Source of the DNA: Mytilus trossulus
Lineage: Eukaryota
Reading direction: 5' to 3'
DNA: 64,000 bases
NCBI RefSeq assembly: GCF_036588685.1
Contig: NC_086381.1
Coordinates: forward strand, 61,566,001 to 61,630,000
Shown: positions 6,849-60,937 of the stretch, piece by piece
Position numbering within the stretch: position 1 is the first letter of the stretch
Layout: every line of letters starts with the position of its first letter
Program-made: the position numbers and the translations under genes
The notes under the pieces: model-generated
What the model was told of the DNA's origin: nothing
The model's database searches: none
What the model saw: only the letters and a program-made list of their open reading frames with translations

Positions 6849-7919
6849 GTAAGTAACTGTAGAAATTAAACTAAAGCGAAGAGGGAAAGACAATTAGTTT
6901 CATTTTACCCGTAGGCAAAGATAAAGATAACACTATATGACGCAACAATGCAAAGTATTAGTCGAGAAAAAAGACATGTCAAAAGCAATTAAAAGCACCC
7001 CCAAATATCAGACCTCTTCATTGAATTAGTAAATATCGCTTTAACTTATTAAAAGTGTTTTGTATTTCTATTTAATGAAATTTTATTTTCTAATAAATAA
7101 CTTGTGTTAATGATTTACCAAACGAGCATTTGTGTTTTGCCTTTCAATATGTGTACTTTGTTCATTTTTTTTTTATTTTTGTAAGATCATTTACATACAC
7201 ATATTCAAACACACATAACATTTTGTATGGAATCCGATGTGGTTGTTATCAACGTAATTTGACATTTTTTTATTGGAAAAGCCTGGAGAAGATTCTAAAA
7301 ATTTCAATATAGTTTTTTTTTAATGTAATGAATCGATGTCCTATTTAATTCAAATGTCTTAGAAATTATTGTTCAATGACATATGCCCTTTGTTTAAAAA
7401 AAACATATGATAAGTCTCCTCTGTTTGTTTTGTTGCATTACCTAATTTGCTGGTTATCTTCCGATCGATTAAAAATAGGGGTCTATGCCATTTTAGTCGT
7501 TCATATATGTTTTCAGAACACCTCGTAGCATGTTCTGTGGAACATGATATATACCTACACACGAACTTCATTTTTTAGCATATTTGAAAATAAAAAGGTA
7601 ATACTTTGGATAAAAAATATCAACATCAACTATATGAATAAGGTGTTCATCAGAAATTATAATATTATAAATATTTATTGTGTATTTTTTAAGTCGTAAT
7701 TAAAAATATCAGTTCTTCAAGCCCTATGCAATATGACTTGCTGCAAATTTGTTGAGTTGGCATAAGAATACATGCAATTGTTTTCCGAAAAGTATATTGT
7801 GGCTGTACACTTTAAATGACTGTTAAGTTCAGTCACAATGTATACATGTAGCATACCAAATCATTATGGTTAACTTTTAACATATAGTAACACCAGTAAC
7901 ATTCTGATTTTTGTTGCAG

Positions 7920-8530
7920 AGATACTTCGTTATATGAATATAAGTGCATCTTCCTTAGGATTGGCTTGGTCTTTGAATGCCTTCAAACATCAATATCGAA
8001 AGACGAAACAGAACCAAGAAGATGGCATTTTAATAAAAGTCATTCACTGGATATCACGGTTTGCTGAAATTGTGCCACGTATCATCTTAATTGCGCTTAT
8101 TATGGCTGAATATAGCTATTATGTTTCATTTTTTATAGCTTATCGTCTTCTACATGGACTGATGTACATCTGCAGTAAAGGAAACAATGTTCTGGACTTA
8201 TTGTTGGGAATATTTGGCAACATATTTTGCTTTTCTGTTTCTCGCATTTATCGGTGCCACAAGAAAGAACACTGTGGGAGAATATTCTTTCCATTTTACT
8301 ACATTTTATTTTATTTTGAAAACGCTTGCATGTTGTATCTATGGTACAGTGATGATTTGGTTTTACTTTCGATAAAGATTGGGGGCGCGTGTTCAAACCA
8401 TACAGGGATTGTGCCTTATGTATTCATTGTTGTCATTTTGGGGTTCATTGTTCAACCGTCGTGTCTGTTACTTTACTATCGGTTACGTAAAAAACAGCAT
8501 ACACCAAACGATACAAACACATCTGAATAG
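7920..8530 (+). CDS. XK-related protein, terminal exon D
   Basis: ttgcag| acceptor, in frame (K-ILRYMNISASSLGLAWSL). Contains XK motifs SRFAEIVPRIILIAL and YYILFYFENACM; stop at 8528-8530. The spliced CDS from ATG 4515 is 1383 nt (460 aa) with consistent phases. Confidence 0.9.
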
Positions 8531-12238: not shown

Positions 12239-12579
12239 TATAACGTCAAATATACTCCGTCAATACTAAGAAAGAGGAATCCTGAATACTCCGAACTTCA
12301 GAACTTTATTAAACAAATTCAGACGCAGTAACTGCGCTACATGAGCATCAATTAAACATGATAGAAAAATAAAATTATGTAGTACCGCGGGGTCGTCGGT
12401 GGTGCTCCACTGATGGGGGAGACAGATCCGGAAGACGAAAGAGCCTCGCTTCGGATCTGTCAGTTGTAACCTAGAACCAGAACTAGAAGCATCAACGCTG
12501 ATTCTAGCCGATTCCAAATAGTAGTACCAAAGTAGTATATCCTTCAGATATCGTCACGGTAAGTTTAACAAAGCTTACA
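12239..12579 (+). repeat. Putative 5' LTR (start uncertain)
   Basis: Ends ...AAGCTTACA immediately before the PBS. TATAAC at 12239 could be a mutated TGTAAC start. No second copy in the window to confirm it. Confidence 0.4.
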
Positions 12580-12580
12580 T

Positions 12581-12594
12581 TGGCGCTGCGAGCA
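12581..12594 (+). promoter_or_regulatory. Primer binding site, tRNA-Ser type
   Basis: TGGCGCTGCGAGCA is complementary to ...UGCUCGCAGCG-CCA, resembling the 3' ends of animal tRNA-Ser(CGA/UGA). It sits 1 nt after an ACA terminus. Confidence 0.7.
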
Positions 12595-13152
12595 TTTGTT
12601 TTCGAACCAATTCACTCAGGGAGTTGAATTTTACATCGAAATTGCAATTTTCAAGGGGCCAAAACAGCACCTTCATGTTGTTTTTATGGATCCCCGACAG
12701 GTCACCTATTTTCAGTTTTCGCTAACCATAGTTTAGCTAGGTTAGTTTAATTGGGAGGGAGAGTTAAAGCACCGGGAAGGGAACCTTGTGTGGCTAAGTT
12801 TAAGTCACCGTTTTTTTTATTTTTAGGGATTTTTTCATTCCGAGCGGTTTGCGGTGCCCTTGTAGGAACAAGTGTGAACCCCTTACTTGTTCTGCAAAAC
12901 CCTTGTAGAGAATTGTAAACCCCAATCCAATTTCCGCCGCGTATTGCACTCAGTTGACCTACGCAGTTTAACTTCCATTTGCAACCAAAATTAGCAAATC
13001 TTCCAGTTGTAGACAGAAAAAAGAAATTTTAAGTGTCAAATTAAAAACAGCCCATACACATACACTTGCCATTTTATATACACTCCTCTGGGGTCAACTT
13101 ATAAGCTTGATCCCCAATTAAAAAAAGTAGTGTTATTATAAAACCATACAAA

Positions 13153-13280
13153 AAAAGTAAAATCACAAAAATACTGAACTCAGAGGAAAATCAATTTGGA
13201 AAGTCCATAATCACATGGCAAAATCAAAAAACAAAACGCATCAAAAACGAATGGACAAGAACTGTCATATTCCTGACTTG
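13153..13280 (+). mobile_element. 128-bp Helentron/HINE-like terminal fragment inserted in the Gypsy leader
   Basis: Identical to 23361-23488. Confidence 0.85.
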
Positions 13281-13391: not shown

Positions 13392-15089
13392 ATGACTAGA
13401 GTCCACATAAACTCTGCCACTTTTGAAGAGTTGTTATCAATTCCAGGGGTGGGGGCTAAAATTGCAGCAAAAATCTGGAAATTGAGGGAGGATAATGGGA
13501 TTCTAGAGTTGGAGGACCTACAGGAGGTCCCTTATATGAGAATCACTGAGGCAGCTCTAGAATCTATGGATTTTAGTACCTCTTTGTCACCCAACAGGTG
13601 GTCTAATAAATTTTGCAAGGAGGAGATAGGGCATCAGGAAAAGTTGCAGCGGATTGATAGCCTCATACAGGCAAGGGGTAGGGGGCAAACTGCGAATGAG
13701 TATCCCAGTCAAACAGTAGAAACACCCAGAGCCAGGGAGGCAGTGTCCACATCTCCATCCCAGCATCTCAATTTTCAAGAGGGTGGGGAACTTAACCGGG
13801 GGTTCAGGGAAAACATTGGGACGCACCAGGACCAATGGGACAGGCCCATGAGTGCTTATGGGGGTACGAGAGATTACAGGTATGAAGGGGAACACCTCGA
13901 TCTCGATATAACAATGCCGGGGATACAGGAAGGGAAAGAGGGGGTTTTCAAAACCGGTATACTGATAATGAGGGCCCAAGGCTTATAGATGCCCATATGG
14001 AGAGTGCGGCTCCAGCATAGAAGCACACCAGTAGCATGGGGTACCCCACAGGGTCAGGGGAACCTAGACGGGTATATGTGTACCAAAGAAGCTCTCATCG
14101 GGATGCATATGACCACCAGGGGAACATGGGAGGGTCAGATAACCAAAGGCAAAGGGGGTCTACGGGGGTTAGACCTCCAATCCGACAAAAGAGCCTCAGG
14201 TATATCTGTTGGGAAAACTAATTGGCAGGCTTTCTATGCCAAATTTTCCCGATTATGCCAGGTCAGTGGGTGGTCTTCAGGGGAGTGCAGGTCCCTTGAT
14301 GAGAAACCGAGTGAGTTTTATGCCTTGCTCGTGGAAAGAAGGCATGACTTGTCTTATGAGGACTTGGTGGGTAAGTTGGCCAAACAGTTTGGGTTCAATG
14401 AGTTGCCAGAAACAGCCCAAGTCCAATTTAACATTGCCAGGCAGGGTGGGGCCGAAACCTTAGAGGACTGGGCCGACAGGGTCCAATCCCTTGCCACAAA
14501 AGCCTTCTGTCACCTTCATGAGGATCATATGTACCAACAAGCCATCATGAGATTGTGTCAGGGGGCCTCAGATAAGGAGAGGGAATGTTGGCCTCCAATG
14601 CCAAACCTAAAAGTATTGATGAGGCGGTGGATAAAATTCGTTGGCATCAACATAACCACCAAGCCATATATGGCTGCAGTGCTCGAAAGGAAGTCAAAAG
14701 TGTAAGCCCGGAGACCAGAGGCAGGACAGGGGACCACTATACTGTATGTTTCACTTCAGGTCCCGTCTCCCAAAATGCTTCTCCCAAAATTCCCTCTAAA
14801 GAACATCCCCCTAAATATGTCCAGGATTTAAAGAACCAATTTCATGCCTTCAAAAGGGGGGGATGGGGGGGGGGGGGGGGGGGGGGTAAGTGGAACCCTT
14901 TGCAATATCATGTCTGAAATACAAAAGCTATCTTTTGCTGTCCGAAATAATGCTAGGCCCCCATCCAGAAGCCCCTCCCCTCGGGCTGGTAATGGTGGTT
15001 GTTTCCATTGTGGGGAGGCAGGTCACTTTAAAAGGGAATGCCCAAAGTTCCAAAGGTCTAATTATCCTAGACCTGGGGTGAAAAAGTAA
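13392..15089 (+). pseudogene. gag: gag (frameshifted) with N-terminal ComEA/HHH_3-type helix-hairpin-helix and C-terminal CCHC zinc knuckle
   Basis: N-terminus MTRVHINSATFEELLSIPGVGAKIAAKIWKLR. Capsid-like FNIARQGGAETLEDWADRVQSLA. Knuckle CFHCGEAGHFKREC at 15000-15041. Confidence 0.85.
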
Positions 15090-15590
15090 GCTTCCAGGAC
15101 AACAAGGGTCCGTTAAACTCCAACGGGTTGACTCAAGAGGTCTGAGTCTAGCCCCTAAACAACGGAGTATAAAGGACCTCGTGATAAGCCAAAAACCCTC
15201 TTACATGAATATGGAGGGTACCATCAGTCAGATAGAAATACCGGGGGGTCATTTCAGAGGAAGTAATTTTCCAACGTGTGCAGGAACGCCAATAGGAACA
15301 GTCCCATCCCAAAGAACTAGGGGTCACTAAATCATTTTCTCCCGTCCCACTAGACCAAACGTCCACAAAAGATATAGACTTAGCTCGAACAGAAAACCTA
15401 ATAGAAGGGCCTAAGAGGGAACCCATCATTGTCCTGGACATGTCTGAGTCGGGGTCACAAGACGAAGAGTCTGGGGAGGAAGGGGAACAAACACTGTGCG
15501 ATAGCTCAAACAGTGATGGGGAAGCTTAAGGGGACTTGGTGACAGAAGGGGAAAGAGAAATGATAACCATTAGACAGTAACGGGGGGACT

Positions 15591-18500
15591 ATGTATCGGG
15601 TGCCTGTGGTAGTCCAGGGTCAAAGGGTCGATGCTGTTGTGGACACAGCAGCTCAGGTTAACCTAATATCAGAGGAAACGTACAAAAGTTTAAAAGAGCC
15701 ACCTCCTATTCTTAAAGAGGTGGTGATGAACACTGCAGGGAAGGGCCTACAAATGATGGTTTTGTTGCTCGGCCTTTTTATATTAAGTTGGGGAAACAAG
15801 AATTCACATGGGACATATATGTAGCACCAATTGGGGATCAGATGCTATTGGGGATAGACTTCTTAAGGAAGCAGGGCATCTCACTTGACTTACATAGGAA
15901 TCAATTGTCCATTCACGGAGAGGTCATCCAAATGTCACTGGGTCAGGCGAGTTTATTGCCCCAAACAACTGAGGTACGGGAGGGAAAAAAATCACCCAGT
16001 CCCAGCAAATTCAGTTCAAAGAGTAATAGGGGTGTTGGCCAAACCCATGGGCCGAGAATACATCATTGAGGCAAAGGCTGAGGGCTGTCTGCTCATACCC
16101 AGAACCTTACGTGATGTGGGTCAAGATCCGGTGATGTGTCTGATAAACCTCACTGGCAGTCCCCTGGTTATCTCAAAGGGGGACTTACTTGCCTAAGCTC
16201 AGGAAGTCGACATGGGGGAACCCCCGGGCCCTAAAGTGTGCAAATTGAGGGTTGCTGGAGATGTTAATGAAAAGTCGTTGCCCCAACACTTACAAGAGAT
16301 GTTCACTAGGTCCTGTGAGGATTTGTCCAAAGGGGAGGAGGAGACCTTGTGTTCCCTGTTACAGGAATTTCAGGATGTCTTTGCTAGCAGTGACTTGGAC
16401 CTGGGCCATTTCACAGCCTTGGAACATGGCATTGACACCAGGAATCACCCCTATTAAACAGCGAATGCGGCGTACACCCTTAGGTTTTGCCCAAGAAGAG
16501 GAGGCCCATTTGGAAAAAAATGTTAGAGTCTGGGGTAATTCAGCCATCCGTATCGGAGTGGGCTTCTGCCCCAATCCTCATACGGAAGAGGGATAGTAGA
16601 GTTAGGTGGTGTGTTGACTATAGGAGGGTCAATGGGGCCTGTTCCCGCACAATCTCTGCACTCCCCTTAGCATAAGAGTGCCTAGACGCCCTAGCAGGAA
16701 ATGTGTGGTACTCCAAGTTGGATGCCAATTCAGCGTATTGGCAAGTCAAAATAAAAGAGGAGGACCGGTCAAAAACGGCCTTTATCACCAAATATGGGCT
16801 TTTTGAGTTTGCACGCATGGATTTTGGGCTATACAATGCCCCAGCTACATACGCCCGGGTTACAAGCCTTGTACTCCGGGGTTAACATGGCGGGTAGTGT
16901 TGACTTTCTTGGATGACATATTAGTCTTGCGAAGGGATTTTGGGGACCACTTGACAAACCTGAGGGTGGTATTTGAAAGGTTTAGGACGTACGGGCTCAA
17001 ACTAAAACCAAGGAAGTGCGATTTATTTTGGGAAGAAGGTAGAATTTTTAGAGAGGGTGGTAGGTCCCGAAGGGATGGAAATTGACCCGAGATATGTAAG
17101 AGATGTAAAAATCTGGCAAAAAACCCGGAACTCAAAGGAAGTTGAACGGTTTTTGGGGTTCGCAAATTATCACAGGGCCTTTATAAAAGACTATACTAAT
17201 ATAGCTTTACCCCTTCAAGCCTCAACCGGAAAACGCCCCTATTCCTGGGGAAACGAGCAACAACAGTCTTTCGACAGACTCAGGGAAGCCATGGTGCCAG
17301 CCCCTGTCCTGTCATTGCCCAATGCAACTGATCATTTTATCTTAGACACGGATGCCTCCGACAAGGCTATTGGGGCGGAATTATTGCAGGTTCAGGGGGA
17401 CAGGAACGGGCCACGTCCGATGCTAACTTTACCCTTACCCCAGAACAGCAGAAATATTGTACTATTCGAAAGGAGCTGTTAGCCATTGTCAGGTTCACTA
17501 GGCCATTCAGACATTACTTGCTTGGGCGGAGGTTTACGGTTCGAACAGATCATAGTAACCTCAATTGGTTAACCAATTTCAGAGAACCCCAGGGACAATT
17601 AGCCCGGTGGTTGGAAGAAATCAGTCAGTTAGATATGGAAATCAAACACCGGCGCCAGGGGCTAAACAACCTAATGCAGACGCTTTATCTCGATTGCCTC
17701 AATATGGACCCTGTCCTGAGTTTCAAGTAAGGTTCTAGCAGATTTGCCCTGTGGGGATGAACATACTGTGCCCCAGCTCAACAAAATTGGGGACAGTTCA
17801 CAGAAAATGTCAATAATATCATACCCTTGGCAAAGAGACCCTATGGTATTCCACAAACCAGAGACACACGAGAACCAGTGGTGCAAACATCCCGGGTGTC
17901 AGTGTCTAAGATGGGGGACGAATTAGCCATATGGTCAGAGGGGGGGGGGTGACATCTGGGTGCAGGAAGTAGGAGGGGATACAGTCTGGAGGAATTAAAA
18001 GAAAATCAAAGTAAGGGCCTGGAATTAAAATGGGTGGTTCAATGGAGGAAAACAAAAGGGTAACTCTCTGAGGAGGGAATCTTCCTTAGCGGTCCCGCCA
18101 CCAGGAACTATTGGTTAAATCGGGAATTATTTGTCCTTAATGGGGATAATATCCTGTACAAGAAAGGGTCTAACGAAGATGTAGGCAGGGTGGTTATCCT
18201 CCAAGTATCACGAAAGAAGCTTATGGAGTTGTGTCATGATATTCCTGCAGGGGGACCGAACCTATCAAAGGATCAAGTCAAGGTATTATTGGAGAGGGAT
18301 GAAGAAAGAGATTGAACAGTATTAGCAAGTTGTGCTCTGTGTAGCCAAAACAAAAAGGCTACCCGTCCAAACCGCCACCCTATGGTAAAACATCATGCCG
18401 GGGCACCAAGGGAAAGGGTTCATTTAGATTGTGTGGGGCCCCTTCCAAAAACGGAACGAGGAAATGAACATATCCTCATGATGATCGATCAGTTTACCAA

Positions 18501-19490
18501 ATGGGTGGAATGTATCCCTCTTCCCCGCCCAGGGCGCTGAATTAACAGCCCGTACAGCAGTGAAGGAATTTTTCTCCCATGTCGAGAGTCCCTTTCAAGT
18601 ATTCACTGATCAGGGGTGGAACTTTGTATCCCATCTGTTTAAAGCCATGTGTGACCTGCTTCAAATACACAAAAGTAGAACCACCCCATACCGCCAGTCC
18701 TCCAATGGTCAATTAGAGCGTTGCTATCGAACACTGATGGCTTCAGTGCGATGCTTTGTTGGGAAAAAATCAAAAGTCCTGGGATCTTTTCCTTCCGCAA
18801 TTGGCTGGTGCGTTCCGTGCGTCAGTCAGTAAAAGCACCGGGTTTACTCCTTATCATCACATGTTGGGCAGATATGTCAATCAGCTTGCTGAGTTGATGG
18901 TCAGGGGGCCACAGGGGGAGGGAATTCAGGATAAAGAAAAATATGTATCGGACCTAGATGAAGCCATCCAAGGGGCACATGAGCTGGCCAGGGCCAATCT
19001 ACAAACGGCACAAGAACGCATCAAAAGGCATTACGATCTCAAGGTGGTAGTCAAAAGGTTTAAAGTGGGGGATCTAGTGTATCAATTGGATACGGCCCCC
19101 ATCAAGGGAAAATGTCGAAAATTGACACCAGCCTGGAAGGGCCCCAGGGTGGTGGTGGAAAGTCTCACTCCATACCTTTACAGGGTCAAAATGAAAACAG
19201 CAATGGTAGTGACCCATCATGACCGGATTAAGTTTTGTAAGGATAGGGAAGTCCCAAATTGGTGCAAAAAAACCTTCAAGCCCAAGTAATAAGTAAAAAT
19301 TGGAAAGAAAAAGAGGAGTTGGAACCCAAGGGAAAAAAAGGGAAAATACATTTTTTTTATCATGCCGGGGATGATGAGGGTCTCATGATCAGATGTGACG
19401 AGTGCAGGGAATGGTTCCATGGACGATGTGTGAACATCACTCCTAGGGAGGCTGACATGATGGACGCTTATCAGTATCTGGGATGTTCGG
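15591..19490 (+). pseudogene. pol: pol (frameshifted): aspartic protease, RT, RNase H, integrase with GPY/F-like tail and degenerate C-terminal PHD finger
   Basis: AVVDTAAQV (15642); SEWASAPILIRK..VRWCVDYR; KTAFITKYGLFEF; FLDDILV (16906); FILDTDASDKAIGAEL; HLDCVGPLPKTERGN..IDQFTKW; FTDQG; SNGQLER; AWKGP; MIRCDECREWFHGRCV. Confidence 0.9.
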
Positions 19491-19549
19491 TCTCCACAGG
19501 AGTGCACGTGTCTAGGATCTCCCTGCACTCTAAGGTAAAAAAAATTCAG

Positions 19550-21605
19550 ATGAACAATAAACAGAACAAGCAGGACAAGACCCCAGGAGATGAAAACCAG
19601 CCATCCTCTCCAATGCAGTCCTCCGTCACGGAAATGGTGGAGGAACTGGTGGTTTGTGTACCAGAGGAGGAGCTGAGGCAGCTAGACCCTGAGGTACAGG
19701 GGAACCCAGGGGCTTCGTTAGAGGTAGGTAGGTGTCAGAAGGGGGGGTTTGAGGGCGCCACTGAGGATGAGGCGAAGGGGGAAGTGAAGAGCAAGAAGAA
19801 GAGAAAGAAGTCCAAGCCAAATAAAAGGAGTAGAGCTGCCAAAAAGAAGGCCATGGCAGCGGCCTCACCTCTCCAGACAACCTCACCTCAGGGGGTCCAG
19901 GGAATGGCTCAGGGTCAGGAGAGGTGTCGGGACCAGTCTGGCTCCCCAGCTCCCTGTGAGGTGGCAAGACCTCACTATGGAGTGCAGGGTGGATCAGTTG
20001 GCACTGGACTGTCTTGTCCAGTGTCTGGCTGTGAAGCCCGGGGACCAGGCCTGGAAGGGCACATCCTAGCGGAGCACGTGGCCGAGGTGTTCCGGGACCT
20101 GGGAGTTTCCGACCCAGGGTTAGCCCGGGTGCGCCTCACGTCGTTGAGCACACTCTTCAGGGCCCTAGGGGGGGCTGCTGTGGGGGACCCCATCCATTGG
20201 GTGATAAGCCAACTGGAGACTTTAGGATTGACTCCAGAGGACTTGAGCGCTGAGTGGGGAGCCATGGCAACAGTGTGCCAATTGGCGCAGTGGGAGGTTC
20301 CGCCAACCTTCACGCTGTCGCCAATCAACTCGCCTGCAGTCCTCGTGTTGGAGTTGATGGCTCTGTTACAGGGGCATCAACGTCACGCCTTTCTGGGAAA
20401 AGTCAACCTCAGCTCCAGTGAGCCTTCCCGGGCGAGCTCCTCTATTGAGCAGGGGAGTCCACCAGCCAAGGCAGGAGTTTTCAGAAGGCTGGGGGCCCCG
20501 GTTTGCACACAGGGACTCACAGGCCCTTGGGGCAGGTTGGGGTGTTCAGTTCCACATGACCCTCTCCAAGGTCCATTCCCTCCCTCATGTCCCTCCCTCA
20601 TGTCCCTCCCTACCCGGCCTGTACCCTCCCTCATGTCTCTCCCGTGTCCCAGTCCAAGCAGGTCACTTCCGGGTCTAGGGTCACGAGGCTCATCCTCGTC
20701 TGTGGGGGCACAGGGATCAAAGCATCGGGGGAATCCCTCAGGGAGTAGGGGAGTGGAGTCCCAATTGTGCAGGGACCTTCCAGAGGCATTCGACAGTCAC
20801 ATGCATCTGGATAGGTCGCTGAGCAAGATGGGGCTGCCTTCCCGGACATCTTTGGGTGATTTTCCTAGGGTGCGGTTGGACCCTGCCCCTTTGGACCCAG
20901 TCAAGCTGGCTGGAGGGGTTTCAGTTTTCTGTGACCCGAATACTTGGCCCCAGGTACCTTTGAGGCTGGAACCGGGGTGGGTCGGGGCAGAGGGGGATCC
21001 ACCCCAAGTGCTGGGTAGTTTGAGGACGCCACTCAGCACCGGTTCCACCAACTGGTGTCTCATCCGAGTGTGTCCGCCCTTGAAGAGGTGGGAGTGGACT
21101 TCATCGTGGAGGATAAATTGCACGCCCGTCAAATCTCTACCTTGCGATGGGCACTCCAGTCTTGTCGTTTTGACCAGCCTGTGGTCCTGCACATTCGAGA
21201 TGACAGACTGGATAGGGTTCACGCCCGGGCCTATCGTGATGTTTTGGGAGTCCTGAAGAGCGTGGCAGTGACCCCCCTACAGTTGATCCATCTCCATTGC
21301 TTCCAGGGGGGATGACTCAGATGCGGGAGTGGCAGGACTCGTACTGCAATGCGTACTTCGGGTTTGGGATGGGTGTCAGGTCCTTCAACTCCAAGCAGAA
21401 GGATGTCTTAAGGTCGGTACCTCCCTACAGGATCCTCTTGGAGAGTGATGCCCCTTACTTTTTCCCGCCAAATGCACGGCATGGCCACCCTCATTACCTG
21501 TATGAGGTGGCAAAGGTGGTGGGAACAGTGAGGGCAACCTCACCAAGGGAAATTGTACGGGTGGCCCACCTCAATGGAAGCCGTCTGTACGGAGTTAACC
21601 CGTAG
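19550..21605 (+). pseudogene. Third (env-position) ORF: basic/NLS-like segment, C2H2-like finger, Pro/Ser-rich linker and TatD DNase domain
   Basis: KSKKKRKKSKPNKRSRAAKKK; CPVSGC-x9-H-x4-H; then TatD motifs across frameshifts. The ATG at 19550 is the inferred start, although the ORF track reads through from the PHD region. Confidence 0.75.
20789..21605 (+). pseudogene. tatD: TatD-family metal-dependent nuclease domain (about 3 frameshifts)
   Basis: FDSHMHLD (HxH); GIHPK (restored by removing one G of the 20992-20996 run); LEEVGVDF; PVVLHIRD; IHLHCFQG; YFGFG; RILLESDAPYF; HPHYLYEVAKVV. Order and spacing match the TatD TIM barrel. Confidence 0.9.
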
Positions 21606-22196
21606 GTGGGCAACTCACATGTAAATAGCGACATAAGGGCCCGCGTCGCCAGGTAAACTAAATTTGCTACAGTAAAACTAGCGATGAACGTCCTTAAAGC
21701 TTCAAATACAATACAGTTATCTCGTAAAGGTAATACAAAAGTGGATAAGACTCCTATATGTGAATGTTACATTGGTGAGTATTCTACGTGCGCTACGACA
21801 CATTTATTTGATTGTATCAGAAATTAAATTAAAACTCCAAACAGATATAGAAAAAATCGATTCAGGTGGAATGAGTCTTACGCTTGAATTAAACAATTCG
21901 GAAGATATGTAAGCACAATCGTCTTGCAAACATTTGGAATTAAATACCCTATACACAAGTATTCCTCATTTAAATGTCACCTAAAATTTACATTCACCGC
22001 TTCTGATTAATACACATTAGAGGAATACAAAATAACAAATTTCGCTATCCTATAAACATTGGAAATTAGTATGTGTGTCCTACAAATGTAGTTTCAGTTT
22101 CACCTATAATTCTTAATTTAGATTTGATTTCACTATGAATTGCGGACGGAATAGAAAACAGTTGCAAATGACAGTTGAATGACATTAAATAAACTG

Positions 22197-24844
22197 TTTT
22201 TAAGATAAATGTTTGCAAGTAAATGCATAGTTTCTGTGTTATATTTTCTAAACCAAATCTGGTGTTGTTTTTGTTTGTGGCATTATTCTTAAATTTTTAG
22301 ATAATGGTAGTTAAATTACTTACGTTGTTTCTTAAAATTAGGTAGAACAAAATAACTGCATAACATGCGAACATGTCTTCAACACATACATTCACATGTC
22401 ATATCATTTAGCCTTAACTTTAAAGTCACTGTGTGTATTTGATTTAAGACTACAGTAAAAGATCTTATTGGTAAAATTTTGTTAATCAATTTGATACGAG
22501 TTTAAGCATAGTTGTCACCTGTTGTCGTTTATTTGCTCGTTTAACTGCTTAAAATTTCTAAAGTTAACTTGGAAAGTGTGCTTCGTGTTTACCTTTGTAC
22601 ATGTTAGGGCTGTACCTAGCTGTAGGTATTTATTCCTGCTGATAAATCTTGGTTTTCGAAAGTGGTGATAGAGTCCGACTGTCAATGAACAATAGGATAA
22701 TCTGTTTCATTCAAATAATTTGTTTAAGGTTTTGTGACAGCAAAGGCAGACTTAGTGGGTTTCGTAATCATTTTTTTTTTCTGGGGTAAAGAAATAACTT
22801 TGATAACTAACGACACACGTTTTATATCTGAATTCCACTTGAAGCATGCAACAACGCACAGTTCGAACTTAGCTGTAAAACATTTATGTGTACTGCTAAA
22901 GTCAACACAGTTCTGCTTAAAGAGTCTTTTTCTACTGTTAATAAATCAAAAGTATGTTATACCTCATAACTATGTCATGTCTGCACTAGAACAATGTTTT
23001 TGATTTGGATTTTGAAATAAATTGGAAGCTGTTCCCATACGAATCCAATTCAAGAGTCAAATAACATATAGCTACTTCTTATTTAAGATTAAATATACTT
23101 TTTTAAGATAAATGTTTGCAAGCAAATGCATAGTTTCTGTTTTATATTTTCTAAACTAAATCTGGTGTTGTTTTTGTTTGTGGGATTATTCTTAAATTTA
23201 TAAATAATGGTGGTTAAATTACCTACTTTGTTTCTTAAAATTAGGTAGAACAAAATAAATGCATAACATGCGAACATGTCTTCAACACATACATTCACAT
23301 GTCAAATCATTTAGCCTTAACTTTAAAGTCACTGTGTGTATTTGATTTAAGACTACAGTAAAAAGTAAAATCACAAAAATACTGAACTCAGAGGAAAATC
23401 AATTTGGAAAGTCCATAATCACATGGCAAAATCAAAAAACAAAACGCATCAAAAACGAATGGACAAGAACTGTCATATTCCTGACTTGGTACAGGCATTT
23501 TCAAATGTAGAAAATGGTGGATTAAACCTGGTTCTATAGCGCTAACCCTCTCACTTTAATAACAGTCTCATCAAATTCCGTTACATTTACATGATGCGTT
23601 AAATAAACAGTCACAATCAATAAAATAGTCAAAATATGGGAACATCAGTCATCATCGTATAACAATTTAACAGGACACAACAACATCTACTATCTACGAA
23701 CACATGGATTGATTTGAGTGTCTGACGTCAGAAAAATTATATACGTCACATAAATTTGTCGTTCAATGTGCATACAATAGTTATCCAAAGTACCTGGATT
23801 ATAAACAATTTTAAATATGAGCGCAGACAGGGTTAAAAAATCAAAAGTATGTAAGAATAAATTACAGAAATCAAACTAGTCCAAAAGATATACATAGAAT
23901 TTATGAGAATCCAAAACTTTTAAAAGGAACAATTTAACAGGACACAAAAACCTATCCACGAACACATGGATCTACTTGAGTGTCCGACGTCAGAAAAATT
24001 ATATACGTCACATAAATTTGTCGTTCAATGTGCATACAATAGTTATCCAAAGTACCTGGATTATAAACAATTTTAAATTTTACATAGGCAATGAGCGCAG
24101 ACAGGGTTAAAAAATCAAAAGTATGTAAGAATAAATTACAGAAATCAAACTAGTCCAAAAGTTATACATAGAATTTATGAGAATCCAAAACTTTTAAAAG
24201 ATCTTATAAGTAAAATTTTTGTTATTCAATTTGAAACGAGTTTAAGCATAATTGTCACCTGTTGTCGTTTATTTGCTCGTTTGTCTGCTTAAAATTTCTA
24301 AAGTTAGCTTGGAAAGTCTGCTTCGTGTTTACCTTTGTACATGTTAGGACTGTACCTAACTGTAGGTATTTATTCCTGCTGATAAATCTTGGTTTTCGAA
24401 AGTGGTGATAGAGTCCGACTGTCAATGGACAATAGGATAATCTGTTTCATTCAAATATTTTTTTTAAGGTTTTGTGACAGCAAAGGCAGACTTAGTGGGT
24501 TTATTTTTTTTTTCTTTCCTGGGGTAAAGAAATAACTTTGATAACTAACGACACACGTTTTATATCTGAATTCCACTTGAAGCAAGCAACAATGCACAGT
24601 TTGCACTTAGTTGTAAAACATGTATGTGTACTGCTAAAGTCAACACTGTTCTGCTTTAAAAGTCTTTTTCTACTGTTACAGTAAATAAATCAAAAGTATG
24701 TTATATCTCATAACTATTTCATGTCTGCACTAGAACAACTTTTGTTTTTATTTGGATTTTGAAATATATTGGAAGCTGTTCCCATACGAATCCAATTCAA
24801 GAGTCAAATAACATATAGCTACTTCTTATTTAAGATTAAATATA
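22197..24844. repeat. ~900-bp tandem duplication; second unit interrupted by an ~840-bp insertion
   Basis: 22197-23097 matches 23099-23360 plus 24197-24844 with scattered substitutions. Confidence 0.9.
23361..24196 (+). mobile_element. Helentron/HINE-like insertion with an internal ~270-bp tandem duplication
   Basis: Absent from the first duplicate unit, whose empty site is CAGTAAAAGATC. Inserted in an A run (TT on the other strand) without a clear TSD. 23661-23930 is repeated at ~23930-24196. Confidence 0.8.
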
Positions 24845-25669: not shown

Positions 25670-26785
25670 AATAGTAATAATAGTAACAATTTCTATAGCG
25701 CCCTATATAACAATAAAATCACTCTAAGGCGCTTTACATATATATATATACATGATAAAAATATAATAAGTTAACCACAAAACAAAATGAAATAAAAAAT
25801 GTTATGTTTAAAAGAACTAAAAACGTATATATGAAAGATATATGAACATAAATTATTATATTGATAGAAAAATAAAAGAATTAAAATCAATAATAAGTAC
25901 CAAAAAAGATATTAAAACATAGAAAGCGAAAATATATTTAAAATTTAGCAGAAAGATTATAATAAATAATTGAAATGGTCATGAAAACTTTTGCTAGAAT
26001 AAAAATTGTACGAAGAAAACAAAAAACAGAAATCACAGCACATTTTCAAATAAAATTAAAGGAATAAGAATTAAGATAACAGCTTATTAAACGCAAGTCT
26101 GTAAAAATATGTCTTCAATTGTTTTTTAAAACACTGAACAGATTTAGAGTGACGAATTTGTACAGGTAGACTGTTCCATAGGGTAGCGGCAGCACGATTA
26201 AATTGTCTTTCACCGTACGTTTTTGTTCGGACATGTGGCAGTTTAAGTCTAAGGCTGCCCTCTGATCGTAGTGCCTTAGTTGTTGTTTGGATATGTAATA
26301 GTTCCTGTATATAGTCCGGGGCAGTTCCTTGCAGTGCCGTGTACGTATAGACAAGGATTTTGAACTTTGGCCGGAATTCAACAGGGAGCCAGTGCAGTCC
26401 AGCGAGAATAGGTGTAATGTGTTCTCTTTTCCTAGTTTTCGTAACAAGACGGGCTCCAGTGTTCTGAACTCTCTGTAACCTTTCAATTTGACACTTGTTA
26501 ACGCCGAGGAGTAAACTATTTGCGTAGTCAAGTCTGGAAGTTACAAGGGAATTAACCAGAGTTTTAAAAGCATCCGTAGAGATGAAATGTCGGATTCGTC
26601 CAATGTTGCACAGATGGTATTTACACGATTTTACGATAGACGCAACTTGTTTTTCCATGGTAAGACGGCTGTCAAAATAAACACCAAGATTACGTACCGA
26701 TGTGACACTATTGATTACATTTTCACCTACTTTAAGTTGGAAAACAGGCATGTTCTTCGACTGATGTTTCGATGAAAAGACGAGT
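25670..26785 (-). mobile_element. 5'-truncated L2/Crack-type (CR1 superfamily) LINE: RT C-terminus, 3' UTR and tail
   Basis: ORF 26071-26751 encodes VRNLGVYFDS..LVTSRLDYANSLL..HITPILAGLHWLPV. The 3' end has an AGCGCC...GGCGCT stem followed by a TAT/TAC short-repeat tail. Confidence 0.9.
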
Positions 26786-28837
26786 TTAAATGCTTACATG
26801 ACGATATACGTTATGTGAAATTGATGATTAAAGACAAAGAAATATTGCACATTGTAGAAGTCAAAGTATATGCATGGTAAATAAGTCGAAAGCAAATGTT
26901 TTTGTCTATTTATAGCATGTTGATGTTTTGTTTTCAAAATTTATGATATCAAATTAAACTAGTAGAATTGGTTAACTAAGTTCTGTAATAGTTATCCCCC
27001 AAGGACGCAGTGTGTCAGTGTAAGATCACCCCAATGGCCAGCTGTTTTAGATTAAACGAGAAACCATTTACATTTCATAAAATCTAGTTTAGAACAACAC
27101 ACAACCATTAGAATATACTTTATATATTACTATATAATGTATACCCCTTATGACCTCCAAACACGATGATCAAACAATGTCAAATGGCCCCACTTGCCAC
27201 ATTTGTTCGTATCCAGTCATTCTGGTGTAATGGTATGTGTCGTGGCTTAAAATGCTAAAGGTCTTGAGTTCGAATTCCAGCATATACACTGGATTTTATC
27301 CTCATGAATTTTGATAGATAGTCTTTTCCGTATAATTAATTATAAGGTTTATAGTGGATTTGACATTCCCGCCAAAATATTACAGAACAAAGGAAAGCAT
27401 GCATAAAAAAGAAACTTAAACTGGGGTAATCTGGTAGGGGTGATCCGGCTCAAATCAACCCTGTTAGAACAAAGGAGCTGGGATGTAATCTGTTTGCTCA
27501 ATGTTAGATAATTCTGGTTAATTTTCACAACATTTGATCATTATTGGGAGATAATATAATTCCCTCTAAATCATTTGATATAAGTTTGAAGTTTTTGAAA
27601 TGAAGTTTTGGTTATGGTTTTCTGTTTTTTTTTGTGGATGTTGGTACATGTATGTACATCGGATGCGTGTGTTTGTGTTTGTGTTATTGATTATTAAACA
27701 TAAGACATTTATTTGTTTTCTGTTATTATCATATACACACGTTTAATACATTAAATACGTTCGCAAGTAGCAGGATAAAAGCAATTGGAGTTATTGATTG
27801 TTGAAGGCCGAACGGTGACCTATAGTTGTTAATGTCTGTGTTATTTTGGTCTTTTGTGGGTATTTGTTTCATTGGCAATCATACCACATCTTCGTTTTTA
27901 TATTCCCTCATGTTTACGCATGCTGTGGCATTTAGGTCCTCCGTAAACCCTCTTATGGTCATTGCGAATCAAAATATAGCTTTAGTATCAACGGTCATTT
28001 TTTTTCATATTTATTTCACTATTCACCGCTTCAATTTGAATAATGAAACATAAACATGATAAACTATTTCATTATTGATTATTCATATTTTGATATTGAA
28101 TAATGAATAGTGAACTATTTCATTATTCATTTTTGAATAATGAACTATGAATAATGGACGTACTTCAGCGCGGTAAAATATTCATCTACCAATATTGACA
28201 CTTTGCTGTTTTAGAGCATATAACAATCAGCTTATAACATGTATAAAGCGAAATAATTACATAAAAAAACAAGAGCGAATCTCGAGACAAATTTATTCTG
28301 ATGATACATAGCGACAATATGAAATCACAAAAATGTAATCAATGACTCCTATGTACACTTCATTTTAAAGATGTTTACAAGTTCTGATAACAAGATAATT
28401 GCATTTAAATTAATGTCACGAAAGGCGATATATTACAATAATTGCGACTTTTAATCCATTTTTCATTTTCATTCATACGTACATGTAAACTATTATCCGC
28501 TATCAAGTTTTTCTCCTATCACATATCTTCGCGCATTATCTCCCGCTACGACATTCAATATGGAGTCAGAATCCAACTTCAAGGTAGCTACATCGGTGTT
28601 GGTGGGATAGGATACATGTACCTATACGATTCAAAAATAGAAAAACATGTCAAATTAAATAAAAATGCATTTGCTAACCATCTAACAAAGCTTTAATCGA
28701 TAAAATTATGTTAAAAATCAATATAAATTGCAAAATTTAAAAATGACTAAAGACATGTCTGTATGAAAAGTAGTACATAATCTAATGCAATGTTCTTCTT
28801 GTTTTCAAACAAAAGCTCATGTTCATGAACAAGGACA

Positions 28838-59596: not shown

Positions 59597-60937
59597 AAAC
59601 TAGAGAATCTCAAGAGCCTGTGTTGCTCACCTGACTCTACTTGGGTTTTAAAAATCATAAAAAAGATAAAAATCATAACAGATACTTAAATAATGATTGA
59701 GGTCGAATTTGGTTTGATATTCCTGTTACTTGATAATAAATCCCTGTGGCCATCTTCAAAAGTAAATCAGCAACAAAGTAATAACACTTCATCAGCACCT
59801 CATATGGAACATTCATGCTATGTTCTCTGAAAGAACACATTTGTATGTATTACCCATAGGGTCCTACATTGTATGTTAAACTAAGTTCCCACTGGCTGCC
59901 ATCTTGGATGATGGATTGGCTATGAGGTAACAACACTTGGTCAGCTCCTCATAAGGAACATCCATGTCATGTTTCGTTCCGTTCCATTCTTTGGTTATCT
60001 GAAGGATGACATTTGTATGTTTTTCCCGTAGGGTCCTCTGTTAAACTAAGACTCCTCTGGTGGCCATCTTGGATGATTGATCGGTTACAAAGTAACAACA
60101 CTTTGTCAGCACCAGGAACATTCATGCCAAGTTTGGTTCCATTCCGTTCTGTGGTTTTCTGAAAGAAGACATGTGTGTATATTTATTTCCAATAGGGTCC
60201 TCTGTTAAACTAAGCCCCGTCTGGTGGCCATCTTGGATGATGGATCGGCTACAAAGTAACAACACTTTGTCAGAACCTCATAAGGAACATTCATGCCATG
60301 TGTAGATTCATTGCATTTTGTGGTTCTCTAAAAGAAGACGTGTGTATGTATATCCCATGGGATCCTATGTTAAACTTAGTCTTCCGCTGGTGGCCACGTT
60401 GGATGATGAATCTACTACAGCGTAACAACACTTGGTCGGCACCTCATAAGGAACATTCATACAATGTTTGATTTCATTCCGTTCTGTGACTCTCTTTAAG
60501 AAGGCATCTTTATGTTTTTCCTATATGGTCCTATGTTAAACTAATTCCCACGCTGGTTGCCATATTGAATGATGGATCGGCTAAAAGTAGCAACACTTGG
60601 TCCGCACCTCATAAGAAACATTCATGCTATGCTTGGTTTCATTCGCATTCAGTGGTTTTCTAAAAGAAAACATTTGTATGTATTTCCCATTGGGTCCTTT
60701 GTTAAACTAAGTCCTCCGTTGGCAGCCGTCTTGGATGTTGGATTGGATAAAAAGTAACAATACTTGGTCAGCACTTCATAAGGAACATTCATGCCATGGT
60801 TGGTTACATTTCATTCAGTGGTTTTCTAGAAGATGTTCAAAATGTAAAAGATAACAACGACGACGACGGACGACGGACGACGGACGTCAAATGATGAGAA
60901 TAGCTCATTTGGTCCTTTGGGCCAGGTGAGCTAAAAA
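59597..60937 (+). mobile_element. HINE-like element with a central array of ~6.5 x ~165-bp tandem repeats
   Basis: Head AAACTAGAG..GCTCACCT. GCCATCTTGGATGA-type anchors at ~59898, 60062, 60226, 60392, 60559 and 60725. GACG microsatellite and terminal AGCTCA..TGG.CC..GGGCCAGGTGAGCT hairpin. Confidence 0.85.

Follow-up and report, generated by a model that had tools for sequence, protein, structure and literature searches.

Here, we analysed a 64,000-nucleotide stretch of Mytilus trossulus DNA (the window), which carries a decayed, 3′-truncated copy of a Ty3/Gypsy element from an old lineage with a third open reading frame (ORF3) between integrase and the 3′ LTR. All element features lie on the forward strand. 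The diverged 5′ LTR (12378..12579, 202 bp, ends TG...CA) matches the paired LTR of sibling copies at 78% over 130 nt, and ends TTACA directly ahead of the primer-binding site, as in L031-L049. The primer-binding site (PBS) itself (TGGCGCTGCGAGC, 12581..12593), putatively tRNA-Ser-like, is identical in seven of the ten siblings compared, with one change in L037 and two in L041 and L045. A short repeat in the leader (13152..13280) is a later insertion and not part of the element: it is a gap in every sibling match and has a 100% copy at 23360-23488. Both coding regions that follow are split into many short frames. Gag (13392..15145) holds an N-terminal helix-hairpin-helix (HhH), a capsid-like region and a CCHC knuckle at 15000 (Pfam HHH_3 6.7e-10, Retrotrans_gag 6e-4), while pol (15580..19289) holds protease at 15642, reverse transcriptase at 16909, RNase H at 17345, integrase from 18418 and GPY/F at 19134 (RT_RNaseH 3.7e-19, rve 8e-5), the pieces being placed also by tblastn from a sibling. 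The same order of gag and PR-RT-RH-IN was obtained by Pfam on the pol of L058. A PHD finger lies 3′ of the integrase (19370..19490; Pfam PHD 4.5e-7, and 1.9e-9 in sibling L032).

Downstream of the PHD finger comes the N-terminal part of ORF3 (19550..20791), delimited by alignment and, through a homolog in a different family, by modelling and fold comparison. It runs through an acidic leader, a basic Lys/Arg stretch, a zinc finger (20015), a helical 'LHW' domain that is partly deleted in this copy, and a low-complexity linker. The TatD nuclease domain, assigned to the TATDN2 lineage and HxH class II, occupies 20792..21605 and is followed by a 3′ UTR remnant (21606..21643). Likeness to the siblings stops at 21643, beyond which they continue for ~330-370 further bases with a G-rich polypurine tract (PPT) and an LTR; in the window the remaining UTR, PPT and 3′ LTR are gone, and no second LTR for this element was found within the 64 kb. 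The window copy is dead.

A sequence-only reading of this DNA had described one long open reading frame ending in a full TatD domain, on the same strand as the integrase and inside a GC-rich island. We found all six of its TatD motifs, namely DSHMH (20792-20806), GIHP (20994-21005), EVGVD (21085-21099), LHIR (21187-21198), HCF (21295-21303) and ESDAPY (21441-21458), and the domain is indeed intronless, on the same strand and 3′ of integrase (GPY/F at 19134) and PHD (19394). Two pieces of the window match Pfam TatD_DNase (8.6e-10 and 6.6e-12), and GC content is 46-61% over 14-22 kb compared with ~30% in the flanks. The single open frame did not hold, since the motifs are spread over four pieces in three reading frames, with two breaks near 20,990-21,010 and one near 21,310. 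These pieces share 82-90% amino acid identity with the open domain of sibling L032.

Searching the genome at the DNA level returned about 12 relatives close to full length, with 82-93% identity (1310 candidates, 30 of them scored), and both ends of ten siblings were compared. Paired LTRs of 194-204 bp with TG...CA ends enclosed TatD in 10/10, with ~370 bp between the TatD end and the 3′ LTR lying inside the element; no sibling lacked TatD or had its 3′ LTR ahead of it. A PBS and a G-rich PPT were present in the siblings. The LTR pairs were 100% identical in four, 97-99.5% in four and 87% in two; the latter two share flanks, leaving nine independent insertions, among which the 4-bp target site duplication was perfect in six, carried one mismatch in two and was absent in one. 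The identical LTR pairs indicate that the lineage is recently mobile. The TatD domain was in a single open frame in five of the ten siblings. In the window family, integrase, PHD and ORF3 have a common frame with no stop between PHD and ORF3 (window ORF 19247-21256; L034); the stop seen in L032 occurs in that copy only, and L048 carries one directly ahead of the ATG. From the frames, ORF3 of this family can be read either as a Pol extension or from the ATG at 19550.

We then considered TatD across the genome, where 140 Pfam matches collapsed to 116 loci (150 of 158 candidates scored). For at least 64 of the 116, an integrase was scored no more than 9 kb upstream in the same orientation, and this also held for 50 of the 69 near-full-length ones; 64 is a lower bound, as the window locus itself was missed and, among the unpaired loci that were read, six show upstream pol or ORF3 sequence. 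When integrases were ranked by likeness to L055 (117 of 118 rows, one duplicate piece dropped), TatD lay 0.9-2.6 kb downstream of all 36 at the top and downstream of 52 of the top 53, compared with none of ranks 54-63 and only five of ranks 68-117. Eight further TatD loci were read, of which two were not Gypsy and six were Gypsy elements with gag, a pol of 1,395-1,500 aa and a separate ORF3 of 491-840 aa. These represent six other divergent families with the same ORF3, consisting of acidic leader, zinc finger(s), helical domain and TatD, and LTR pairs, mostly 100% identical, were present in three of them, the three tested. At least seven families with about 5-15 copies each are present in this one genome, and ORF3 stands apart from pol in six of seven. 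According to PMC8905726, Steamer has another length, PBS and ORF number than the TatD-bearing family. An intronless TATDN3-like ORF (L001) also lies elsewhere in the genome. The claim that a Gypsy lineage captured TatD and passes it on behind pol was supported by paired LTRs around TatD in 10/10 siblings and in three further families, and we regard it as practically certain that TatD is a heritable cargo of this lineage.

Across the families, ORF3 follows one plan: an acidic leader and a basic stretch precede one or two zinc fingers, after which come a helical domain marked by an LHW motif and finally TatD. The AlphaFold (AF2) model of the L052 ORF3 had a pLDDT of 91, and its TatD part formed a TIM barrel resembling TatD/YcfH structures (Foldseek E 1e-14). 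In the fold search of the model, the N-terminal pair weakly resembled tandem C2H2 fingers (Z up to 4.1), while the helical domain found no counterpart in either the PDB (Z>=5) or BFVD (E<=0.001). Atlas features for the helical domain are leads only. No signal peptide or membrane segment was found in ORF3 (maximum 19-residue hydropathy 0.9-1.35), and Pfam matched TatD but no envelope family; the 'env position' of the sequence-only reading holds for the place after pol only. Pfam and fold also both point to TatD rather than to a DEDDy exonuclease. The residues HxH, E, H, HxHC and ExD were found in 28/28 open domains (ten broken copies left out), and the class II ligands (HxH, bridging Glu, two His, ExD) were invariant in 9/9 aligned domains. 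By sequence and model, the domain is a class II (HxH) TIM-barrel TatD, and we consider it quite probable that it is an active nuclease.

A splice-acceptor-like site (ttcag/ATG, 19535..19552) adjoins the ORF3 ATG, and AG/ATG is kept in 9/9 aligned copies covering the site. An AG lay 0-1 nt 5′ of the first ATG in 12 of 14 ORF3s, and a strict pyrimidine rule held for 7/13 ORF3 starts compared with 4/161 pol ATGs, counts that include related families and are not independent samples. A candidate splice donor (GTAAGT, 14371..14376) lies within gag, for which one contig joint is a weak hint: in one of four runs, which are only guessed to be RNA, a contig joined 14370 to 19583 across an unread middle, and with this joint gag and ORF3 would be in different frames at the ORF3 ATG. 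Contigs covered ORF3 in 4/4 runs, and as the runs were chosen with that stretch this gives no gene ranking. From the acceptor-like site we infer that a spliced subgenomic RNA may be the main source of the ORF3 protein, as for env or the accessory genes of retroviruses. Env is made by subgenomic splicing. A 2.6-kb LTR-bounded element on C4 was considered as an integrated spliced copy and rejected, as its first 721 bases just follow the full leader; it looks like an internal deletion.

As evidence against ESSENTIALITY, the sister families L154 and L155 keep the PHD finger and the ORF3 core (HMM E 9e-12 and 4e-7) without TatD. They are the two families read out of about 10 copies at integrase ranks 54-63, and these TatD-less sisters have open pol frames of 2,400-2,500 aa. 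The L154 C-terminus is ubiquitin-like in a low-confidence Atlas model (TM 0.67-0.76); the C-termini of L154 and L155 gave no pairwise alignment with each other and no Pfam match. The sister integrases are 59-64% identical to that of L058, compared with 44-49% for the AT-rich TatD families and <=43% for other Gypsies, and an HhH gag is common to copies of this group. Given this integrase identity and the shared HhH and PHD, loss or replacement of TatD in the sisters would be the simplest reading. Since the sister families keep the ORF3 core without it, TatD is best regarded as accessory.

In a 40-row tree, 14 element-type TatDs formed one clade (100/98), comprising seven from this genome, proteins labelled as Mya, Mizuhopecten, Crassostrea, Saccostrea and Strongylocentrotus, along with two unlabelled ones. 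This clade was sister to the TATDN2 group (94/98), and both together were separated (98/96) from bacterial and TATDN3-like rows; a 138-row quick tree gave the same picture. Pairing the window family with mussel TATDN2, the sole pairing given an AU test, was rejected on the 40 rows (p=7e-77); the element TatD clade is single and old. The element TatDs did not nest within the animal TATDN2 clade and instead formed a sister clade on longer branches, in trees that were both LG+G4 without a mixture model, so that a deeper nested position might be masked by branch length. Introns are present in the genuine TATDN2-like gene of the mussel (L158). Twelve TatDs from metagenome and viral contigs served as bacterial-type outgroups; searches of such contigs returned TatDs of only 22-36% identity (80 and 15 loci), none in an animal context. 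Of 185 long homologs from element searches, 151 carried the ORF3 core, versus 0 of 32 from the host-TATDN2 search; together with the clade, the core suggests an LTR context in the other species as well. The sea-urchin core score is weak (E 0.008), and the lineage appears to range over bivalves and probably echinoderms.

Between families, TatD identity is only 28-51%, and pol and TatD identity are correlated across the seven families (rho 0.79, p=5/5040). As for selection among copies, dN/dS was well below 1, at 0.21, 0.09 and 0.13 when three window pieces were compared with L032 (dS 0.36-0.78) and 0.18-0.37 among young copies, between-family dS being mostly saturated. By these sequence measures, the element TatDs are under purifying selection and diverge in step with pol.

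What the nuclease does was approached through its host relatives. Human TATDN2, as described in PMC10711561, degrades R-loop RNA 3′-5′ through E593/E705, and its binding depends on the N-terminal region; its DNase/AP activity is low, and it acts minimally on plain RNA:DNA duplexes. In medaka, according to PMC12709183, tatdn2 guards primordial germ cells from R-loops and is needed there. TATDN1, TATDN3 and the E. coli TatDs are ssDNA 3′-exonucleases and AP endonucleases, and TATDN2 and TATDN3 belong to HxH class II (PMC10085689). Because the element domain is of the TATDN2 lineage, and TATDN2 is an R-loop RNase with a germ-cell role, we favour the clearance of R-loop or hybrid RNA: ORF3 might encode an accessory nuclease acting on RNA:DNA hybrids or R-loops of the element, a reading that, for role and substrate together, we hold only tentatively, though above the others. 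The ORF3 protein would be a non-membrane, probably nuclear enzyme, recruited to element nucleic acid by its zinc-finger/helical part, and its TatD part would trim RNA 3′ ends in R-loop or RNA:DNA structures, either at the provirus during transcription or on intermediates of reverse transcription and integration. Transcription and transposition of the element would benefit in germ cells, the setting in which host TATDN2 has the same task, and TatD would be helpful to the element without being essential. A role in reverse transcription is weakened by the minimal action of human TATDN2 on plain RNA:DNA duplexes that PMC10711561 reports. Against the R-loop reading as a whole, the element domains form a sister clade and are not TATDN2 orthologs, and may have changed specificity. 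The RNase H of the TatD-bearing elements is intact-looking, an observation that counts against an R-loop or hybrid role.

The core that L154 and L155 retain without TatD, and the low-confidence ubiquitin-like C-terminus of L154, would also fit a protein in which the zinc-finger/helical part is a targeting core carrying a swappable effector, TatD in most families and a ubiquitin-like domain in a sister family, that counteracts silencing or sensing by the host through the destruction of targets such as small-RNA precursors, nascent-RNA hybrids or stray cDNA. An expression like that of accessory genes, as suggested by the acceptor-like site, would agree with such counter-defence, and similar ideas were raised for rotifer DEDDy ORF3s in PMC5408684. 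However, fold searches gave no clear match for the core (Z<5), and copy numbers are modest, at about 5-15 per family, and we consider this reading possible but somewhat unlikely. Less likely again, in our view, is a DNA-processing enzyme, the main idea of the sequence-only reading, in which a 3′-5′ ssDNA exonuclease/AP endonuclease, fused to Pol or packaged alongside it, would trim or proofread cDNA ends or aid integration-gap repair. The ssDNA exonuclease and AP activities of TATDN1, TATDN3 and the E. coli TatDs (PMC10085689) would suit it, as would the window-family ORF3 being in frame with integrase and PHD, so that packaging is possible, and a gag that in the window-family subclade starts with an HhH DNA-binding motif; but the domain clusters with TATDN2, the human form of which shows little DNA/AP activity, and ORF3 is apart from pol in 6/7 families. 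Among the functions the sequence-only reading had proposed, AP or uracil repair would be one of the weaker, because the domain is of the TATDN2 lineage and human TATDN2 has little DNase/AP activity.

We think it highly improbable that ORF3 is kept because the host profits from additional clearance of R-loops in the germline, or that it is a passenger with a nuclease irrelevant to the element. TatD is missing from sister families and many copies are broken, with a single-frame TatD in just 5/10 siblings; yet TatD is conserved across families at 28-51% identity, is kept within recently transposed copies, and has a dN/dS well below 1. Finally, although the window copy is broken and without a 3′ LTR, and an intronless TATDN3-like ORF (L001) exists elsewhere, a processed host TATDN pseudogene or a chance neighbour of the element has virtually no chance of being correct, the one-off pseudogene being ruled out by TatD inside LTRs in many copies and families and by the AU test (p=7e-77).

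To our knowledge, stable enzyme capture by LTR retrotransposons is rare, and the known nuclease cases are without a tested function. The nearest parallel to the TatD ORF3 is the DEDDy ORF3 of rotifer Juno and Vesta elements which, in PMC5408684, is also an intact-looking 3′-5′ nuclease in the ORF3/env position of Gypsy-type elements, without a membrane segment, missing in some relatives and, like the present one, without an assigned function. It differs in having a DnaQ-like fold instead of the TatD TIM barrel of the TATDN2 lineage, and in showing no departure from neutrality within genomes, in contrast to the purifying selection seen here; the joining of a zinc-finger/helical core to the nuclease is found here only. 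The TatD-bearing elements range over bivalves and probably echinoderms, compared with bdelloid rotifers for the DEDDy ORF3. Host TATDN2 shares with the element TatDs the HxH class II site, the E...ExD acidic triad, a long N-terminal extension and the sister position in the tree, whereas the element TatDs are intronless, multi-copy and mobile, with an N-terminal module of their own and longer branches. The AlkB/2-ODD ORF of orchid Gypsy elements (PMC9289625) is likewise a captured nucleic-acid enzyme fixed as cargo, but it is another enzyme, recent and confined to one genus, unlike the old and diversified TatD capture. The multi-domain Burro elements of planarians (PMC6431247) are also Gypsy elements with captured host domains, though with different enzymes. 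Env-bearing errantiviruses have a third ORF after pol (PMC13524379), whereas the TatD ORF3 would encode an enzyme and not a fusogen, without signal peptide or membrane segment. In the bacterial QatABCD anti-phage system, QatD is a class II TatD co-opted in host-parasite conflict (PMC13434339), but it is bacterial and on the side of defence, and the element TatDs score 50-62 bits against a QatD cut-off of 230.

A 3′-5′ nuclease in the ORF3 slot (rotifer DEDDy) and enzyme capture (orchid AlkB) are already known. No TatD-bearing LTR element was found in the full-text literature, taken apart from supplements, Repbase, Dfam and most subscription journals; TatD is unmentioned in the text of PMC5408684, PMC6238403, PMC8905726, PMC13524379 and PMC9289625, and PMC6962438 names TATDN2 only as a Hox-cluster neighbour. 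TatD cargo of Gypsy elements is thus apparently undescribed. Element ORFs are named 'TATDN2', 'tatD' or even bacterial MAG proteins in NCBI/UniRef, and as at least 64 of the 116 TatD loci of this genome sit behind an integrase, their mis-annotation as host genes would inflate bivalve gene-family counts.

The fullest picture would be an ancient mollusc and echinoderm Gypsy lineage with a spliced accessory protein that combines a new targeting core with a swappable effector, here a TATDN2-derived nuclease removing R-loops or silencing RNAs at the element in germ cells. We consider it doubtful that all of this holds; if it does, no earlier R-loop nuclease carried by a retrotransposon would be on record, and transposon cargo would account for most of the 'TatD/TATDN2-like genes' in bivalve annotations. 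Because the TatD cargo is old, diversified, recently mobile and under selection, the TatD-bearing families and their TatD-less sisters offer natural with/without comparisons, and they may connect the biology of retrotransposons with the R-loop pathway by which TATDN2 protects germ cells.

Copies of sister Gypsy families, L154 (G000:C5:52487600-52492100) and L155 (G000:C5:85613500-85618000), carry pol-PHD followed by an ORF3, and when both loci were read, TatD was absent from this ORF3. The zinc-finger/helical core of ORF3 is common to the TatD families and to L154 and L155, while the C-terminus of the L154 ORF3 is a predicted ubiquitin-like domain. Ordering integrases of the genome by their likeness to that of the Gypsy locus L055 placed approximately 10 TatD-less copies of the sister type at ranks 54-63, one of which (G000:C9:61663859) lies close to the window. 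A helix-hairpin-helix motif was detected at the start of gag in the window (13392-13545; Pfam HHH_3, 6.7e-10); its matches elsewhere in the genome include the PHD-bearing families and the TatD-less sisters, and none occurred among the checked copies of four AT-rich or L054-type families. An LTR-bounded 2.6-kb deletion derivative of the TatD-bearing L052 family (G000:C4:35414258-35416824) has retained part of TatD.

Among the database homologues, P0123 is an element-clade TatD in the tree and additionally carries a NADAR domain (Pfam 6.6e-23). P0099 and P0071 are element-clade TatDs with bacterial MAG protein labels, which probably represent animal DNA inside MAG assemblies; P0129, labelled as ostracod, falls in contrast on the TATDN2 side.

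Several other features were recorded in the window: an exon-like frame for an XK-related protein (7874-8530, + strand; Pfam 2.9e-10), a tandem array of 6-7 copies of ~165-bp units (59746-60833), and a 240-aa frame (26071-26793, - strand), which had no match in the Pfam search of the window and which we take to resemble a LINE reverse transcriptase in its C-terminal part. Two repeats of ~800-825 bp, at L006:2827-3652 and in the flank of locus L023, have at least 39 and ~30 copies, respectively. These dispersed copies are nearly identical (90-100%), a pattern that suggests very recent bursts of non-autonomous elements.

The exons at L158 (G000:C1:87779800-87784800) belong to an intron-containing host TATDN2-like gene, and one of them matches a mussel protein of 815 aa at 100% identity. 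The intronless 274-aa open frame at L001:1441-2265 lacks the N-terminal motif, presumably resembles TATDN3, and is possibly a retrocopy or a large exon.

Intronless TatD ORFs were further identified outside Gypsy elements at L056:4851-6795, L057:5888-6850 and L157, all with a short N-terminus rich in Cys/His. In the tree, they branch on the TATDN2 side. At L056 the TatD ORF is preceded by one for an OTU protease (Pfam 2.5e-12), a pair that was found again at G000:C3:58.82 Mb. These non-Gypsy TatD ORFs may be the cargo of another mobile element.
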